In this document: one piece after another, positions 5,013 through 19,998 of the stretch
Position numbering within the stretch: the first letter of the stretch is position 1
How the letters are laid out: each line of letters begins with the position of its first letter
Source: an uncultured virus (IMG/VR IMGVR_UViG_3300032296_004100)
Taxonomy: Duplodnaviria; Heunggongvirae; Uroviricota; Caudoviricetes
IMG/VR virus record: IMGVR_UViG_3300032296_004100
Length of the DNA: 20,000 nt
Reading direction: 5' to 3' (one strand)
Translations under genes and position numbers: made by a program
Notes under the pieces: model-generated
What the model saw: only the letters and a program-made list of their open reading frames with translations
What the model was told of the DNA's origin: nothing
Database searches by the model: none

Positions 5013-5438
5013 TTAGGAAAGTTTCTTTATTTCATCTCTAAGTTCAATTGCCTTTTCATAGTCTTGTTGGTCAACTGCTTTTGTTAGTTGTAAGTTAAGG
5101 TCTTCAAGTTTAACTTTATTGTCTTCCAAGTTTTTAATCTTGTCACGAAGCTCCACCGCTTTTTCAAACTCTTGAAGGTTCACCGCATTTTGGAGTTCTT
5201 TTCTAAGACGCTCCAAGGTATTTTGTTCTGCGGGTTGTGGAGTGTTCCCGTAGGTTGACCTAAAAATCGTGGTGAATTGAATCATACCATCTTCAGAGGT
5301 AAAGGTTTCTTTTGACCAATCACCATTCTCATCCTTACCATTCTCTTTTTGTGTTTTACCTTTAAAGATAAATGGGTCTTGGTTTAACAGTGAGTTAAAA
5401 AGGTTGTCAAATTCATTAAATAATTTTCTTCTAAACAT
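5013..5438 (-). CDS. Tandem UVR (UvrB/UvrC) coiled-coil protein, putative ClpC partner
   Basis: Two UVR motifs: LQNAVNLQEFEKAVELRDKIKNL and LTKAVDQQDYEKAIELRDEIKKL. Divergent from clpC. Lacks the CxxC motifs of McsA. Confidence 0.8.
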   Translation of the reverse strand: MFRRKLFNEFDNLFNSLLNQDPFIFKGKTQKENGKDENGDWSKETFTSEDGMIQFTTIFRSTYGNTPQPAEQNTLERLRKELQNAVNLQEFEKAVELRDKIKNLEDNKVKLEDLNLQLTKAVDQQDYEKAIELRDEIKKLS

Positions 5439-5636: not shown

Positions 5637-7637
5637 ATGAACGACACATTAGGCGACGACGATAAGACACTCTCAAGGAAGAAACCTACCTCCGAATCGG
5701 GTACTCCCGTATTGGATAACTTTTCTCGTGACTTGAACAAATTGGCAGAACAAGGAAAACTTGACCCAGTGATAGGTCGGGAGAAAGAGATTATTCGCAT
5801 TGCTCAAATCCTTTCCCGTAGAAAGAAGAACAACCCTATTATCTTGGGGGAGCCAGGCTCAGGTAAAACCGCTTTGATTGAGGGATTGGCGTCTCTTATT
5901 ATAAATGGAGAATGTCCCAAAAATCTTCTTGACAAGCGTATTGTCAATTTAGACCTCACCGCTGTGGTGGCAGGGACAAAGTATCGTGGTCAGTTCGAGG
6001 AGCGACTAAAGGTTATCCTTGAGGAACTCTCCAACAATCCCAACATCATTGTCTTTATCGATGAGATACACACATTGATTGGTTCAGGTAACTCAACAGG
6101 TAGTTTAGACGGTTCAAACATCTTTAAACCCGCACTTGCTCGTGGAGAAATTCAATGTATCGGTGCCACTACCTTGGATGAGTATCGTAAGTCGTTTGAA
6201 AAAGACGGGGCTTTGGAGCGTAGATTCCAAAAGGTAATTGTAGACCCCTCATCAGTTGAGGAGACCATCCAAATTCTCACTCACATTAAAGACCGATACG
6301 AATCGTTCCACAAAGTGGCATACTCTCAAGAAGTAATCGAACTTTGCGTGAAGCTCGCAGACCGATATATCACCGACCGTGAGTTCCCCGACAAAGCCTT
6401 TGACATTTTGGATGAAGTTGGTGCTCGTAGTCAAACCGAGCAAAAGATTCCTGAAGTAATTGAAGAACTAAAACTCAAGGCTTCGGAAATCAAACAACAA
6501 AAGATGGATGTTGTAAAGAAACAGAACTACGAAGAAGCGGCAGCACTAAGGGACAAGGAGCGTAAAATCCTTGCCAAACTCGAAGAGGAAAAGCGGAAAT
6601 ACGCGGAAGAATCCTCAACAACTCGTATTCCTATCTCCGTGGAACAAGTCTACGATGTTGTTTCCAATATGACCAAAATTCCTGTGAGTAAAATGTCAGT
6701 TGACGATATTAACGCTCTTATTAATATGGACAAAACCCTTATGGAAAAGGTAATTGGTCAAGACGATGCGGTGTCTAAGATTGTCAAATCAATCCGTCGT
6801 AACCGAATCGGAATCAAAGACCCTAACCGTCCTATTGGTTCATTTATCTTCTTAGGTTCAACAGGTGTGGGTAAGACCCACTTGGCAAAACAGATTGCTA
6901 AGGAGATGTTCGGGTCAGAGGATGCGTTGATTCGAGTCGACATGAGTGAATATCAAGAGAAGCACACACTGTCTCGTTTAGTGGGAGCACCCCCAGGATA
7001 TGTCGGTTACGAAGAAGGTGGACAGCTCACCGAACAGGTGAAAAACAAACCATATGCGGTTATCCTATTCGATGAGGTTGAGAAAGCCCACAAGGACATT
7101 TTCTCCATTCTCCTTCAAATTCTTGACGATGGTCACGCAACCGATTCACTCGGTCGCAAAATCAACTTCAAGAACACCCTTATCATCATGACCACCAACC
7201 TCGGAGTCAAGAAACTTCAAGACTTTGGAGCTGGTATCGGGTTCTCCTCTAACAAGTACTCAAACGAGGAGGCTAAAAAACAAATCTTGATGAAGGAAAT
7301 GAAGAACTTCTTTTCCCCCGAGTTCCTAAACCGTATCGATGACACCATTGTGTTCCAAACACTCACAAAGGAGAACATCGAGAAGATTGTAGGACTAGAA
7401 CTTAGTAAACTCTCCAAGCGACTAGGTCACATGAAGTACAAAGTGGTGATGGACCCCACCCTCACAGAGTACATTGCAAAAGTCGGTTTCGATGATGAAT
7501 ACGGAGCTCGTCCAGTAAAACGAGCCATCCAAGACAAAATCGAAGATTACCTATCGGAACTTATCTTAATAGGTAAACTTAAAGAAAACCGAAAATACAC
7601 CTTAAAGGTGGTAAATGAAGAGGTGAAAATCTCTTAA
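5637..7637 (+). CDS. clpC: ClpC-type AAA+ unfoldase lacking the N-terminal Clp_N domain
   Basis: Two AAA modules (GEPGSGKT / VFIDEIH; GSTGVGKT / LFDEVEKAH), pore loops GTKYRGQFEE and GYVG, a UVR-type middle domain (QNYEEAAALRDKE) and a ClpP-docking IGF loop (GAGIGFS). Only ~20 aa precede the first AAA domain. Confidence 0.93.
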   Translation: MNDTLGDDDKTLSRKKPTSESGTPVLDNFSRDLNKLAEQGKLDPVIGREKEIIRIAQILSRRKKNNPIILGEPGSGKTALIEGLASLIINGECPKNLLDKRIVNLDLTAVVAGTKYRGQFEERLKVILEELSNNPNIIVFIDEIHTLIGSGNSTGSLDGSNIFKPALARGEIQCIGATTLDEYRKSFEKDGALERRFQKVIVDPSSVEETIQILTHIKDRYESFHKVAYSQEVIELCVKLADRYITDREFPDKAFDILDEVGARSQTEQKIPEVIEELKLKASEIKQQKMDVVKKQNYEEAAALRDKERKILAKLEEEKRKYAEESSTTRIPISVEQVYDVVSNMTKIPVSKMSVDDINALINMDKTLMEKVIGQDDAVSKIVKSIRRNRIGIKDPNRPIGSFIFLGSTGVGKTHLAKQIAKEMFGSEDALIRVDMSEYQEKHTLSRLVGAPPGYVGYEEGGQLTEQVKNKPYAVILFDEVEKAHKDIFSILLQILDDGHATDSLGRKINFKNTLIIMTTNLGVKKLQDFGAGIGFSSNKYSNEEAKKQILMKEMKNFFSPEFLNRIDDTIVFQTLTKENIEKIVGLELSKLSKRLGHMKYKVVMDPTLTEYIAKVGFDDEYGARPVKRAIQDKIEDYLSELILIGKLKENRKYTLKVVNEEVKIS

Positions 7638-8386: not shown

Positions 8387-9210
8387 AACACCCAAGAATT
8401 GGTTTGAGGTTTCAAATCTTTTTGATGTTTACGATATCCCAATTTTTCAATCATTTTTTTACCCATCTCAATTCCATTGAAAACATCTTCGATTACAACA
8501 TATTCGTAGGGGGTGTGGTAGTCGTAGTACCCAATAGAGAAATTAATACAGGAGATGTCAAATTTACCCCGTAAAGCCCATACATCTGTATAGGGGTGAA
8601 CCATATACTCTAAGTCTTCACCAATACCTTCAGTCAAGATGGTATTACAAACATCAAAGAATTCAGAATCACGGTTGAACAATTGCTGACCCCAACAGTA
8701 TTCAGTCACCATCCAATTTTCGGGAGCATCGAACTGAATACCATATCCAACATTTTCAAAGAACTCGGGACTAGCTTTTTTTGAACCATGACAACCGGTT
8801 TCTTCAGAAACAAAAAATGCCGCTTTCAGATTCGGTAGTTCCTCCAATAATTCCAAACAAGCAAAAACACCAGCTTTGTCATCACCCCCAATTCCTGTGG
8901 GCTGGTCATGGTCGTTGTAAGCTTTAAGAGAAGGGCGTTGCTCTCCTTGAGCATTTACCAAAAATTCCTCACGGATATTAATTGGTCCCAACCCATGTAC
9001 GGTGTCGGTATGAGAAATCACACAAGGGAAATATTCAATATTCTCATCAGTTTGTTTAGTTGCATAAACATTTAGATGTTCATCAACAAAATATGGGATT
9101 TGTTTTTCCTTTAGCCACTCACAAATAAACTCTACCATCATACCTTCTCGGTGTGTTGCGGTTGGAACGGATAAGACTTTCTTTAAGAATTCAATTTTAC
9201 TGTGAGTCAT
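8383..9210 (-). CDS. M20/M28-family zinc metallopeptidase
   Basis: SHTDTV, GGDDKAG, SEETG, FDAP and YHTPYE metal-ligand/catalytic motifs. Start reassigned to ATG at 9210 (MTHSK), with a TAnnTTTG motif at 9227-9234. Confidence 0.85.
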   Translation of the reverse strand: MTHSKIEFLKKVLSVPTATHREGMMVEFICEWLKEKQIPYFVDEHLNVYATKQTDENIEYFPCVISHTDTVHGLGPINIREEFLVNAQGEQRPSLKAYNDHDQPTGIGGDDKAGVFACLELLEELPNLKAAFFVSEETGCHGSKKASPEFFENVGYGIQFDAPENWMVTEYCWGQQLFNRDSEFFDVCNTILTEGIGEDLEYMVHPYTDVWALRGKFDISCINFSIGYYDYHTPYEYVVIEDVFNGIEMGKKMIEKLGYRKHQKDLKPQTNSWVF

Positions 9211-10351
9211 GAGATAATATTTTACCCAAAGATAGTAAAATATTCCTTGATTCCAAAGTGAGCTCATAATTGTAATACCAAGTGTAAAAATTCTCAGGAG
9301 ATATTTTCATCTCTTTCGTATTACTTGACCATCTACCAAGAGGGATATTCTCATAACCACCGTCCGAATAATTTTGAACAAAAAGATTGAGCTTGTTAGA
9401 GGGGGGGTCATAATTGGAAATCATAAATTTCAATTTCTTCTGAGGAACATCAATGTCTTTTTTGACCCCAAACTCTTTGAATATTTTTGTCAACAACTTA
9501 GTTTCCTTGGGTGTAATCTCCCCCTGAATCTTCTCAACCAAATCTTCCATAATCCGATTAGTTTCAGACACATACATTGGATTAGTTAAGTATTCATTGA
9601 TTTCTAAGTTCCACTTATCTTCATTCCAACCTCCGAAATTATTACCACGAACCATTCCTCTGATTGCCGAATGGATACTATCCAAATCTGAAAACCCACC
9701 TTCTTTATTGGGATACATTTTCATTAAATAATAGAGATTCCCTGCCGGTATTGATACATTGAATGAATCACTATATCCCTCAACAAGTTGAATATCCACC
9801 CTATAAGGACTTAACACCTCTTTTAACTCCTCAGAGATAAGACCCCTCATTTTTTCTGTGAACTCTTCATTTTCATATTCATAATTAACATCAAAAATTT
9901 CATTGATTTCACTTCGATACCCCTTTAGCAGAGAATTATTGATAATTTTGGGATTACTACCCACATTAAAATCTTCATCAAATTTTCGATACAACTGTAG
10001 TGACATCTGATATTCCGTACTGTTACTATGAAAAAAATTTCCAAGGAAATAATCCCCCTCTTGAAATCTTTCCCAGGCGGTGTTATCTGATTCATAGTCC
10101 ATAATCCTCCCAATTAAAAACTCATATAGATACCAATCATCATACTCTTGTAAATCGAAATTATCAATCAATTCATTACCATCCATCTTTATTTCAAAAA
10201 TAGATTTTACCCTATTGGGATTTTCTATTATTTTATCTACCACACTCTGAGCTAAAACATCCTCGGCAGATACTCTACCTTTGATGTAGTCGTAAACCAA
10301 CTGAGGAAAATCCTTAGTACTTTCTGAAATTATTCTTCGGGACTTGGTCAT
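9197..10351 (-). CDS. Hypothetical phage protein
   Basis: 384-aa ORF with TATTTATA immediately upstream (10357-10364, minus). No recognisable domain. Confidence 0.75.
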   Translation of the reverse strand: MTKSRRIISESTKDFPQLVYDYIKGRVSAEDVLAQSVVDKIIENPNRVKSIFEIKMDGNELIDNFDLQEYDDWYLYEFLIGRIMDYESDNTAWERFQEGDYFLGNFFHSNSTEYQMSLQLYRKFDEDFNVGSNPKIINNSLLKGYRSEINEIFDVNYEYENEEFTEKMRGLISEELKEVLSPYRVDIQLVEGYSDSFNVSIPAGNLYYLMKMYPNKEGGFSDLDSIHSAIRGMVRGNNFGGWNEDKWNLEINEYLTNPMYVSETNRIMEDLVEKIQGEITPKETKLLTKIFKEFGVKKDIDVPQKKLKFMISNYDPPSNKLNLFVQNYSDGGYENIPLGRWSSNTKEMKISPENFYTWYYNYELTLESRNILLSLGKILSHDSQ

Positions 10352-10356
10352 ATCAA

Positions 10357-10374
10357 TATAAATACTTATATTTG
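10357..10374. promoter_or_regulatory. Back-to-back promoter motifs: TATTTATA (minus, for the 384-aa gene) and Bacteroidota-type TATATTTG (plus, for tmRNA)
   Basis: tataaata at 10357-10364; TATATTTG at 10367-10374, 18 nt before the tmRNA 5' end. Confidence 0.55.
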
Positions 10375-10485
10375 TAGAGTTCTTTGAAATATGGGGGTGA
10401 ACGGTATTGATTGGCAGGGTTAATCATACGGGGCATGCAGTGAGATGTTTCCTATCACTTTAATCTATGGGAGTGCTTTTTAAGT

Positions 10486-10551
10486 GGCAACACTTTTGAA
10501 AAGCTTCAGGCTGTAGGTCTTCTTACAACTGAAGCAGTTACTGTAGCTTAG
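10486..10551 (+). other. tmRNA tag reading frame: (A)GNTFEKLQAVGLLTTEAVTVA*
   Basis: Resume codon GGC follows pk1 and TAAGT. 21 sense codons, then TAG within GTAGC-TTAG-GCTAT. Confidence 0.8.
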
Positions 10552-10781
10552 GCTATAATAACCGTGGGTCGATGGGGACATATACCTTGAAACAGAAGTC
10601 CTTATGGTGTGGTTTCTACCTTAAAAGGAATGGAGGTAATGTTTGGTGTTCTACCGATTTGAGTGAACACCCCACAGTTTCTGATGACGATGGCAAAATA
10701 GGAATCAGATATTTCGGAGGGTTAAACAAACCCTGACCTAAGCATGTAGTCCTTTATGGGTAAACTGAGCAAGACGTGGGT

Positions 10782-10975
10782 TAAAAATCGAGCCCCTTCA
10801 TATCGTGAGATATGTCGAAAATCGGATGAATTCAGGGGAAGTCCTTAGGGATTATCCTGAGCCAAGCCTGGTAGGAACAGGAAGGTGCAGAGACTAGTGG
10901 GTGGTAGACGCTTCTACCGTAATACCACATTAGCGTCCGACATCTTGAAAAAGATGATGATATAGTCCACTTGTG
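10782..10975 (+). mobile_element. Group I intron (194 nt, IC3-like core, no ORF) in the tmRNA T-loop
   Basis: 5' exon ends in U and the intron ends in G. P1 GGGU/GCCC with a U:G at the splice site; P10 UCGA/UCGA; P2 CATATC-GTGA-GATATG; P3 TCGGATG/CGTCCGA; P4 TTCAGG/CCTGAG; GGTGCAGAGACTA...GATATAGTCC (P7 GACTA/TAGTC); P8 CATCTT-GAAA-AAGATG. Removal restores TTCGAAT. Confidence 0.93.
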
Positions 10976-11009
10976 TCGAATCCCACCACCTCCACCGTGG
11001 ACAAATTTG

Positions 11010-11038
11010 AAAGGGTCTTTAATTAGACCCTTTTATTT
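11010..11038 (+). terminator. Intrinsic terminator after tmRNA
   Basis: AAAGGGTCT-TTAATT-AGACCCTTT followed by TATTT. Confidence 0.75.
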
Positions 11039-11101
11039 GTTCATAAATTAGATTTATAATTTATGTAAAATTTGATGTTAAGTTTTATTATTTTTTACTA
11101 C

Positions 11102-11129
11102 TTGACAGATAATTATTGTCGATTATAAT
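11102..11129 (+). promoter_or_regulatory. Consensus sigma70-like promoter (TTGACA-N16-TATAAT) before the small lipoprotein gene
   Basis: TTGACA 11102-11107 and TATAAT 11124-11129; ATG at 11151. Confidence 0.45.
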
Positions 11130-11150
11130 ATTCAATATAATTTATACAAA

Positions 11151-11321
11151 ATGAAAAACATCATCGCATCTATTTTTGCTGCTGTCGTTTTAACTTCTTG
11201 TGGCGGTGAATCAACAGTTGAAGAAACTGTTATTGACACCACAACTGTTGTTACCGAGGAGGATACCCTTGTAACTGAAGAAGTTGTTGAAACTTCAGGA
11301 GAAGAAGCTACCGCAGAGTAA
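11151..11321 (+). CDS. Small acidic lipoprotein (56 aa); not in supplied ORF track
   Basis: MKNIIASIFAAVVLTSC-GGESTVEETVIDTTTVVTEEDTLVTEEVVETSGEEATAE*: signal peptide with LTSC lipobox, then a Glu/Thr-rich tail. Has its own terminator. Confidence 0.8.
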   Translation: MKNIIASIFAAVVLTSCGGESTVEETVIDTTTVVTEEDTLVTEEVVETSGEEATAE

Positions 11322-12363: not shown

Positions 12364-12774
12364 ATGAGAACAAGAGAAAAAAAAGAAAAAAATTGTAAAA
12401 ATTGCGGGGAAAATATCCCGAATAGGAATGTATATTGTGACAATGTTTGCCAAGGAGAATATTCTTTTTCGAAAAAAATAAATGAATGGTTAGGTGGCAA
12501 AAATATGATTCAAAAAGGTGGTAACTCCGTACCTGTATGGATTAAGCGTTATTTGATAAAATTGTCCGAAAACAAGTGTAGTAGATGTTCTTGGTGTGAA
12601 ATAAATGAAGTTACTCGTAAAGTACCGTTGGAAATTGACCATATTGATGGGGACTCGTTAAATAATAATTTTGATAATCTTAGAGTTCTTTGTCCAAATT
12701 GCCATTCTTTAACACCCACTTATAAAAATATTGGTAATAGACAATCTACAAGAACCTATAGAAAATTTTTATAA
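12364..12774 (+). CDS. Free-standing HNH endonuclease with N-terminal Zn-finger
   Basis: CKNC...YCDNVC; CSRC...LEIDHIDGDSLNNNFDNLRVLCPNCHS. Confidence 0.9.
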   Translation: MRTREKKEKNCKNCGENIPNRNVYCDNVCQGEYSFSKKINEWLGGKNMIQKGGNSVPVWIKRYLIKLSENKCSRCSWCEINEVTRKVPLEIDHIDGDSLNNNFDNLRVLCPNCHSLTPTYKNIGNRQSTRTYRKFL

Positions 12775-13217: not shown

Positions 13218-13293
13218 GCCGAAGTAGCTCAGTGGTAGAGCAGCTTTCGTAAAAGATGGTGTGACGCGATAGGTTCGATTCCTGCCTTCGGCT
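13218..13293 (+). pseudogene. tRNA-Thr-like element with aberrant anticodon arm (CGU-containing)
   Basis: Perfect acceptor GCCGAAG/CTTCGGC, D-arm GCTC/GAGC and T-loop TTCGATT. The anticodon region only forms CTTT-CGTA-AAAG, not a 5-bp stem with a 7-nt loop. Confidence 0.65.
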
Positions 13294-13323
13294 CTTAATT
13301 ACTCAATAAACTATTTATTGATT

Positions 13324-14168: not shown

Positions 14169-14455
14169 TGTTTCCAATCTGAAAATTTTAAACCCCACAT
14201 CAAACTAATCATTGCCATTTCCCTTTCCGCAAGGTGTTTGTTGATTCTAAGATTTTTTCTTATAAATTCAGTACCCCACAACTGCCATTCATCATTTTGA
14301 GCTTTGGTCATTTCCCATTCCTGATACCAAGAATCTTTTCTGTCTTTAATATCCTCGTAAGAAATATTATGACCTGCAATATAAAACATTTTGTTGATTA
14401 GTTCTTCAACAACTTTCTGATTTTTTTCCTGTTTTGATAATCGCTTCTTTGTCAT
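14165..14455 (-). CDS. Hypothetical phage protein
   Basis: 96-aa ORF coupled to both neighbours by overlaps. Confidence 0.75.
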   Translation of the reverse strand: MTKKRLSKQEKNQKVVEELINKMFYIAGHNISYEDIKDRKDSWYQEWEMTKAQNDEWQLWGTEFIRKNLRINKHLAEREMAMISLMWGLKFSDWKQ

Positions 14456-15045
14456 TACATTAAAAATTTTATAATTTTATCCTTTATACCTGATTGCTTT
14501 ATACCTTCCCAAGACCTTGGTGTTTGAACAAAATTACTTAAGCCTGGTTTGTTGTCTGAACCATCTCTGTCAGAAAATTGAGCACTCAAAAAATCTATAG
14601 ACATATCCAAATCATCAACCGCGACCCAATGAGTAATCTCAGGATGAGATTCCAACCAATGTTGAATTTCCATGAATCTTTCTAATTCCAAATCAGCCCT
14701 GAATCTTAGTTTAGCCCATTCAGATGGAAATAAATCTTTAAACATTCCTGTGGTATCTATTGGTCTTTTAATAACACCCTGTGATAAGTAATAATCTCCA
14801 AGTTCCTCAATCGTTGCGTGAAACCTCCAATCTGAACTCACCACATATTCTGCGCCTGTTTTCTCAAGAATTTTGTTGAAAACCTTAATCGCTTTTGGGT
14901 CGAAGTTATCAAATCGAACATATACAGGTAAGTCATTTGCTGATGTACCCATAGTTCTACCCTCTTTGATTTGTTTCTTTCTACGAGAACCCCAGTTCTC
15001 CGCCAAGCAGATTACACCATCATTATCTAAGAATATTACTTTCAT
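14455..15045 (-). CDS. HAD-superfamily phosphatase, 'Swiss Army Knife RNA repair' type (HAD_SAK_2-like)
   Basis: MKVIFLDNDGV (DxDGV), VVSSDWR, ER..EI..WL and WVAVDD motifs. Confidence 0.82.
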   Translation of the reverse strand: MKVIFLDNDGVICLAENWGSRRKKQIKEGRTMGTSANDLPVYVRFDNFDPKAIKVFNKILEKTGAEYVVSSDWRFHATIEELGDYYLSQGVIKRPIDTTGMFKDLFPSEWAKLRFRADLELERFMEIQHWLESHPEITHWVAVDDLDMSIDFLSAQFSDRDGSDNKPGLSNFVQTPRSWEGIKQSGIKDKIIKFLM

Positions 15046-19853: not shown

Positions 19854-19870
19854 AACTTCATTAATTTTAG

Positions 19871-19998
19871 TAGTCAGGACAGGATTCGAACCTGTATTGT
19901 ATTGTAAGTGAAAAACACCCATACATTTAGTATCGTAATTCATAACATACGACCTGTTCTTGTATAAATCTAAGCGTCTACCATTCCGCCACCTGACT
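19871..19998 (-). ncRNA. tRNA-like element (AGTYRGG family) with a 78-nt insert replacing the anticodon/variable arms
   Basis: AGTCAGG/CCTGACT plus A; D-arm GCGGAATGGTAGACGC; ACAGG-TTCGAAT-CCTGT. The middle has no canonical anticodon stem-loop. Confidence 0.78.

Follow-up and report, generated by a model that had tools for sequence, protein, structure and literature searches.

The window, a 20,000-nucleotide stretch of DNA from an uncultured virus (IMG/VR record IMGVR_UViG_3300032296_004100), carries a tmRNA gene whose T-loop is interrupted by a group I intron. The gene is recognizable as a tmRNA and its insert as a group I intron, the borders between them fit the usual rules, both parts are conserved, and the intron is patchily distributed among related copies of the gene. 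We judge it likely that this is a real and probably working intron-form tmRNA gene, residing on a large (~300 kb by estimate) uncultured freshwater phage.

A tmRNA gene that is recognized once its exons are joined

The unspliced window was first analyzed with standard tools for tmRNA annotation. ARAGORN finds no tmRNA in it, and the Rfam tmRNA model RF00023 has no match, even at E values up to 10. Because both are blank on the unspliced DNA, the original prediction that standard annotation would miss this gene holds. A test sequence was then made by script, in which 10300-10781 is fused with 10976-11100. ARAGORN reports a 410-nt tmRNA on this joined sequence, consisting of the two exons listed in Table 1. 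The two strands of the acceptor stem pair with a G3:U at the third position, where all five genes compared have a G.U, and the two strands of the T-stem close a 7-nt loop after joining. A complete tmRNA with a G3:U acceptor, pseudoknot 1 and a tag ORF had been proposed, and is borne out by the ARAGORN call on the join together with the stem pairs. The gene end is moved from 10994, as first given, to 10996, since the DNA already specifies the CC of CCA.

ARAGORN has low sensitivity for this tmRNA family, where only 4 of 12 joined or intron-less genes are called. None of the six intron-less genes in that 12-gene set is called, although those genes pass RF00023. The call on the joined window exons is helpful, though not strong alone. 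The joined exons are also 83-86% identical to intron-less homologues that score 69-89 bits with RF00023 (cut-off 47). The tag frame is predicted to encode GNTFEKLQAVGLLTTEAVTVA, 21 codons followed by a TAG stop on the joined exons. The gene is followed by a terminator-like hairpin of 11 pairs with a T run, the sole such site within 10200-11200.

Table 1. Features of the intron-form tmRNA locus (positions in the window)
Feature	Position	Strand	Basis and content
tmRNA 5' exon	10393..10781	+	ARAGORN on script-joined exons; acceptor 5' strand 10393-10399, pseudoknot 1, tag frame, later pseudoknot region; ends with T-stem 5' strand 10776-10780, then first T-loop base U10781
Tag reading frame	10486..10551	+	ARAGORN; positions 94-159 of gene
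ORF-less group I intron	10782..10975	+	194 nt; RF00028
P1	10778-10782/10791-10795	+	Read from sequence
P2	10799-10814	+	GUGA loop
P3	10822-10828/10934-10940	+	Read from sequence
P4	10832-10837/10855-10860	+	Read from sequence
P5	10841-10852	+	Read from sequence
P6/P6a	10861-10886	+	Read from sequence
P7	10890-10895/10964-10968	+	Read from sequence
P7.1/P7.1a	10897-10928	+	Extra hairpin between P7 and 3' strand of P3
P8	10941-10956	+	GAAA loop
tmRNA 3' exon	10976..10996	+	Sequence reading and ARAGORN; T-loop bases 2-7, T-stem 3' strand 10982-10986, acceptor 3' strand 10987-10993; ends with discriminator A10994, then C10995-C10996 (CC of CCA encoded)
Terminator-like hairpin and T run	11008..11035	+	12 bases past tmRNA gene

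The insert is an ORF-less group I intron

Inspection of the insert with the group I intron model RF00028 reveals a match to the full model (1-253) across 10772-10988 on the + strand, scoring 77.4 bits against a cut-off of 50 (E 1.9e-18). The original prediction had proposed this search of the window DNA, and a T-loop group I intron is found at exactly the coordinates that it gave. Intron borders were placed by the usual group I boundary rules. At the 5' border, U10781 forms a U.G pair with G10792 inside the 5-pair P1; at the 3' border, the last intron base is G10975. A P10 pairing is possible between 10976-10979, at the start of the 3' exon, and 10788-10791. As read from the sequence, the intron has no P9, and P7 forms a pseudoknot with P3. 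The additional hairpin P7.1/P7.1a, which follows P7 and precedes the second strand of P3, is one that we take to be typical of subgroup IA.

The helices in Table 1 agree well with the homologous introns, where helix cells are 98.6% paired across 6 genes, compared with 36-47% when the partners are slid. Covariation in these helices is scarce because the intron copies are 97-99% alike. Folded by itself, the intron has a minimum-energy structure that includes P3, P4, P5, P6a, P7.1a and P8, with a fold z of -2.70 and with none of 200 shuffled sequences folding equally well. For so short an intron lacking P9, we assume catalytic competence from its conservation.

Related genes with and without the intron

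To survey related genes, we used a search pattern consisting of an exon stretch upstream of the T-arm, which is hence blind to intron state. The search returned 12 viral contigs and 18 metagenome loci, 5 of the latter already among the viral contigs, and a looser pattern added one 668-bp contig of a metagenome-assembled genome (MAG). Including the window, the census comprises 27 copies that were de-replicated by contig only, such that the same phage population may recur. An intron is present at T-loop subsite 2 in 14 of the 27 copies (3 of these cut by a contig end) and a homologous intron at subsite 3 in two more (L012 and L030). Intron-less alleles, which the original prediction had suggested looking for, make up the other 11 copies of this tmRNA family, and all 11 pass RF00023 with 47.7-88.9 bits against the cut-off of 47. 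Among the 16 copies with an intron, 14 pass the RF00028 cut-off; the other two lie on contigs truncated within the intron, one scoring 40.6 bits (L040) and one retaining only 22 nt of intron (L024). Joined exons measure 408-411 nt, equal in length to the intron-less genes.

The stretch is no product of misassembly: 71-89% of its sampled words are present in 14 DNA runs drawn from 6 studies. The runs that contain it come from lakes, freshwater, sediment and estuary.

Exons and intron are conserved as paired RNA

The acceptor and T stems that flank the intron are 100% paired in the five complete intron-bearing genes, and in three of their pairs both partners have been substituted (G-C to A-U, U-A to C-G). 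An RNAalifold consensus of eight intron-less genes contains 109 pairs. Compensatory changes are seen in 12 of these, among them four in the T-stem and those of the first stem of pseudoknot 1. Within the intron, four substitutions occur in the aligned helices P3-P8, and all retain a standard pair through G.U; P2 of L012 differs in sequence and does not align to the others. All 12 aligned genes retain a tag frame of 21 codons (9 translated by script; L009, L015 and L017 by eye from the alignment); its changes are either conservative or synonymous, and the stop is TAG in some genes and TAA in others. This conservation is evidence that the spliced RNA is probably what selection acts on.

RNA data were available as contigs from four metatranscriptome runs (3 studies), which we compared with 10300-11100. 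These contigs cover 10405-10782 only, with exact pieces at 10426-10689 (X15) and 10408-10596 (X17). The intron and the 3' exon have no RNA contig cover; as these are contigs, missing cover carries no weight. One diverged RNA contig, X15 record 1, reads straight across a T-loop that has no insert. It represents a different allele, so its source may be an intron-less gene.

These data bear on whether the intron splices very poorly or no longer does so, which would leave the tmRNA an inactivated relic while the host tmRNA does the work. RNA contigs of the window allele stop short of the junction and splicing of its intron is inferred only, the ribozyme is small and lacks P9, and the existence of intron-less alleles indicates that the interrupted state is not required. 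A dead gene, however, would degenerate, in the ribozyme core as well as in the exons. The stems that span the intron instead stay paired through two-sided changes, the core has accepted pair-keeping substitutions only, and the intron persists in 16 of 27 copies, with the tag frame intact in the intron-bearing genes. We consider a relic very unlikely.

The tag bears on a further possibility, namely that the tmRNA has a role outside general rescue, either directed against host tmRNA or in sensing, and that splicing would time its action. At 21 residues and with a VTVA end, the tag is long and presumably unlike the usual tags ending in LAA. The accessible part of PMC11915505 cites an RNA of mycobacteriophage DS6A that is tmRNA-like, has no tag and inhibits E. 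coli tmRNA, and phages that use tmRNA to sense the host state are mentioned in the accessible part of PMC7162821. These points are countered by the tag frame, whose length is kept, with synonymous changes, in 12 of 12 genes. We argue that a conserved tag frame points to a tag that is translated, unlike that of a pure decoy, and regard a role outside rescue as quite unlikely. A working tmRNA that would take part in ribosome rescue is the reading that we retain.

The intron looks mobile within the phage family

Pairwise comparisons reveal that intron and exon divergence do not track one another. The window and L006 are 85.4% identical in exon 1 and 99.5% in the intron, and for L011 the corresponding values are 84.4% and 97.9%. 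For L012, exon 1 is 95.6% identical to that of the window and the intron 81.4%. An exon tree was built from 19 complete genes, with 8 rows dropped as cut by a contig end. Intron presence on this tree requires 6 changes, at least 3-4 of which are forced by well-supported branches. Six changes are no fewer than for shuffled labels (mean 6.6), which describes a patchy distribution. Flanking genes are common to contigs with and without the intron, and no endonuclease gene was found inside the intron or within ~900 bases around any copy. Since introns that are 97-99.5% alike sit in exons that are only ~85% alike, and since intron presence is scattered, the intron looks like a mobile element within this phage family.

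An HNH endonuclease gene lies at 12364-12774 (+), between tRNA-Thr and tRNA-Gly. It was considered as a helper of the intron and rejected, as it is carried by none of the five related viral records, three of which bear the intron. Its absence from all five suggests that this gene probably entered the tRNA cluster recently as a mobile insertion.

The tmRNA genes of the window and L004 are 99% identical, and the protein of the upstream gene (9197-10351, -) is just 62.5% identical between them. The nearest viral record, G001, has 44% of the sampled words of the window. Judged by such comparisons, these phage genomes are mosaics.

Homologous introns occupy two subsites

The window intron lies between T-loop bases 1 and 2, where exon 1 ends at U10781 and exon 2 starts at 10976. 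We label this position subsite 2 by the boundary rules of PMC11915505, with the numbering as given in its figure legend. L012 and L030 are cut one base further along, such that both loop U's belong to exon 1 and loop base 3 is the first base of exon 2. The intron core of these two copies, from P6 to P7, is nearly identical to that of the window. The guide strand reads CGAGCCC in 14 of 14 subsite-2 copies and CGGACCC in both subsite-3 copies, and this AG/GA swap shifts the U.G wobble of P1 by one position. The pattern looks like a splice site that has shifted within one intron lineage. Recombination between introns could produce the same picture. Homologous introns at subsites 2 and 3 with a swapped AG/GA in the guide suggest that not every T-loop subsite known from bacteria has to represent a separate invasion.

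Phage setting and host

The tmRNA had been predicted to be phage-encoded, and the viral record G001 and the terminase genes of related records support this. G001, a 74,204-base virus fragment from IMG/VR with an estimated completeness of 25%, has the same tmRNA gene at 99% identity. In 4 of 5 related records, the tmRNA is accompanied at a distance of 11-14 kb by a Terminase_6N gene (588-aa frame). The terminase is T4-like and less than 30% identical to that of any isolate. Every long relative, up to a size of 172 kb, is a viral contig from IMG/VR. The window itself contains seven tRNA-like genes and few proteins with known families. SmpB (PF01668) was found in none of the five related viral records, all of them fragments that are 22-57% complete.

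Phage origin is supported by this genomic context, which can be set against the reading that the stretch is bacterial, with a host tmRNA gene or a piece of host DNA misfiled as viral. The window has no structural phage gene and its Clp ATPase is of cellular type, and one relative sits on the 668-bp contig that was binned with a Nanopelagicales MAG. A contig of that length, however, is too short for reliable binning. It was the single match when species genomes were scanned with the looser exon pattern, whereas the exact exon pattern occurs in 0 of 185,579 species genomes. The terminase large subunit near the tmRNA, the viral origin of every long relative and the HNH endonuclease gene within the tRNA cluster of the window likewise argue against a bacterial chromosome, and we hold this reading to be extremely unlikely. 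A blastn comparison with 50,697 phage records, made in search of cultured relatives, matched the intron core only and never the tmRNA exons.

Assignment to a lineage associated with Bacteroidota, as originally proposed, is unsupported. The Bacteroidota consensus motif TAnnTTTG is not enriched in the window (32 found versus 26.6 +/- 5.1 expected), and an argument for a Bacteroidota host from this motif was rejected. Flavobacterium phages are nominally the top isolates for the terminase, yet at 27% identity, and a Bacteroidota host on this basis was likewise rejected. A perfect TTGACA-16-TATAAT promoter match (12/12) occurs at 11102-11129 (+), ahead of an ORF at 11151, and hints at a host that may use standard sigma-70 promoters.

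Inspection of the remaining window reveals several further genes. A ClpC/ClpA-like double AAA+ unfoldase is encoded at 5637-7637 (+), with matches to AAA_2 (227 bits) and ClpB_D2-small; its GAGIGFSS stretch is presumably the IGF loop for docking to ClpP. A small protein with UVR motifs is encoded at 5013-5438 (-), adjoining the unfoldase gene. G001 has a strong ClpP match of ~195 bits (G001:C1:35579-36106) some 22 kb downstream of its tmRNA, and 4 of 5 related records carry a ClpP gene. A tRNA-like gene of 128-129 nt occurs at 19870-19998 (-), with an RF00005 score of 39.2 bits; with introns allowed, ARAGORN reads it as tRNA-Ser(act) with a 34-nt insert. The tRNA at 13218-13294 (+; RF00005 37.7 bits) has an odd anticodon loop, for which ARAGORN gives the anticodon 'aa' and no name. 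Near the tRNA cluster, the protein encoded at 14455-15045 (-) matches PF18143 at 72.5 bits, the HAD domain found in 'Swiss Army Knife' RNA repair proteins.

Discussion

Intron-form tmRNA was reportedly first encountered in Clostridium botulinum. The original prediction described group I introns in tmRNA as rare, a statement that is now out of date: the accessible part of PMC11915505 catalogs 883 unique intron-form tmRNAs in 21 phyla, all interrupted in the T-loop, at subsites 7, 2, 3 and 8. Subsite 2 is occupied there in Anaerolineae and one Myxococcota, and subsite 3 in Bacteroidia. The same source lists 79 phage tmRNAs, and its accessible text holds no statement that any of these is of intron form. 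Our literature searches returned no printed phage case of an intron-split tmRNA.

The gene described here resembles the bacterial intron-form tmRNAs in the placement of its intron in the T-psi-C loop, in the U.G pair of P1 and in the terminal G of the intron. The bacterial introns are, according to the accessible part of PMC11915505, mostly ORF-less and short, and their genes are likewise missed by standard tmRNA models. In contrast to the bacterial cases, subsites 2 and 3 are here both occupied within one phage gene family, and by homologous introns. A large phage with its own tmRNA beside many tRNA genes and translation-related functions is in turn reminiscent of the huge phages surveyed in PMC7162821. 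As far as the accessible part of that survey goes, tmRNAs were called with ARAGORN only and introns are unmentioned, such that split genes would have been missed. SmpB is reported there in some phages, which contrasts with its absence from the five fragments analyzed here.

Group I introns are themselves known from phages. The intron core (query 399-579) has blastn matches of 72.5-80.8% identity in several of them, and the matches that were examined lie on or beside introns in psbA (Synechococcus phage S-SRM01), in terminase genes (Vibrio phages) and in the tRNA(CAU) of Klebsiella phage Muenster. All phage intron loci examined pass RF00028, with 72-104 bits. These known introns interrupt other genes, some with a homing endonuclease gene nearby, whereas the window intron occupies a tmRNA T-loop and has no endonuclease gene. 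In the Klebsiella phage Muenster genome (L018; MT708547.1), the CAU tRNA at ~779-1097 is unannotated and has its intron in the anticodon loop, with exons assigned by eye. That intron is related to the one in the window and scores 104.1 bits with RF00028. The phage case is a modest extension of a well-catalogued bacterial layout.

For splicing, tmRNA activity and the route of spread, we infer the following. A precursor of ~600 nt would be transcribed and would end at the terminator-like hairpin, after which the intron would remove itself through the usual two transesterifications. In the first step, an external guanosine would attack after U10781, which would be held in P1 as the U.G pair with G10792. 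In the second, the freed exon end would attack after G10975, where P10 would align the 3' exon. The T-arm and the closed acceptor stem would exist in the ligated RNA only. As the ligated RNA alone would have both, alanine charging, binding of host SmpB and ribosome rescue would all depend on splicing. Host SmpB is assumed to be the partner, and rescue would add the 21-residue tag. Free of an endonuclease, the intron would most likely spread by recombination between co-infecting phages.

A more elaborate scheme can be drawn around the same gene, in which the tmRNA would feed a private pathway of rescue and degradation. Here, the phage tmRNA tag with its VTVA end would be read by the phage ClpC-like unfoldase together with the ClpP that related records encode; a mobile ORF-less intron would gate tmRNA maturation, spread between co-infecting phages and slide from subsite 2 to subsite 3 by the AG/GA swap in its guide. 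That the Clp proteins might be linked to the tmRNA tag is only a guess, and we regard the scheme as a whole as unlikely.

The workings of tmRNA and of group I introns as known are unchanged by this finding; the new detail lies in the apparent mobility of the intron and in its apparent shift between subsites. Phage surveys that use ARAGORN or RF00023 miss split tmRNA genes of this kind and, with 16 of 27 copies split in this family, phage tmRNA counts are underestimates. Near-identical introns in exons that are ~85% alike, together with intron-less alleles of the same gene, offer a natural system for endonuclease-free intron spread.
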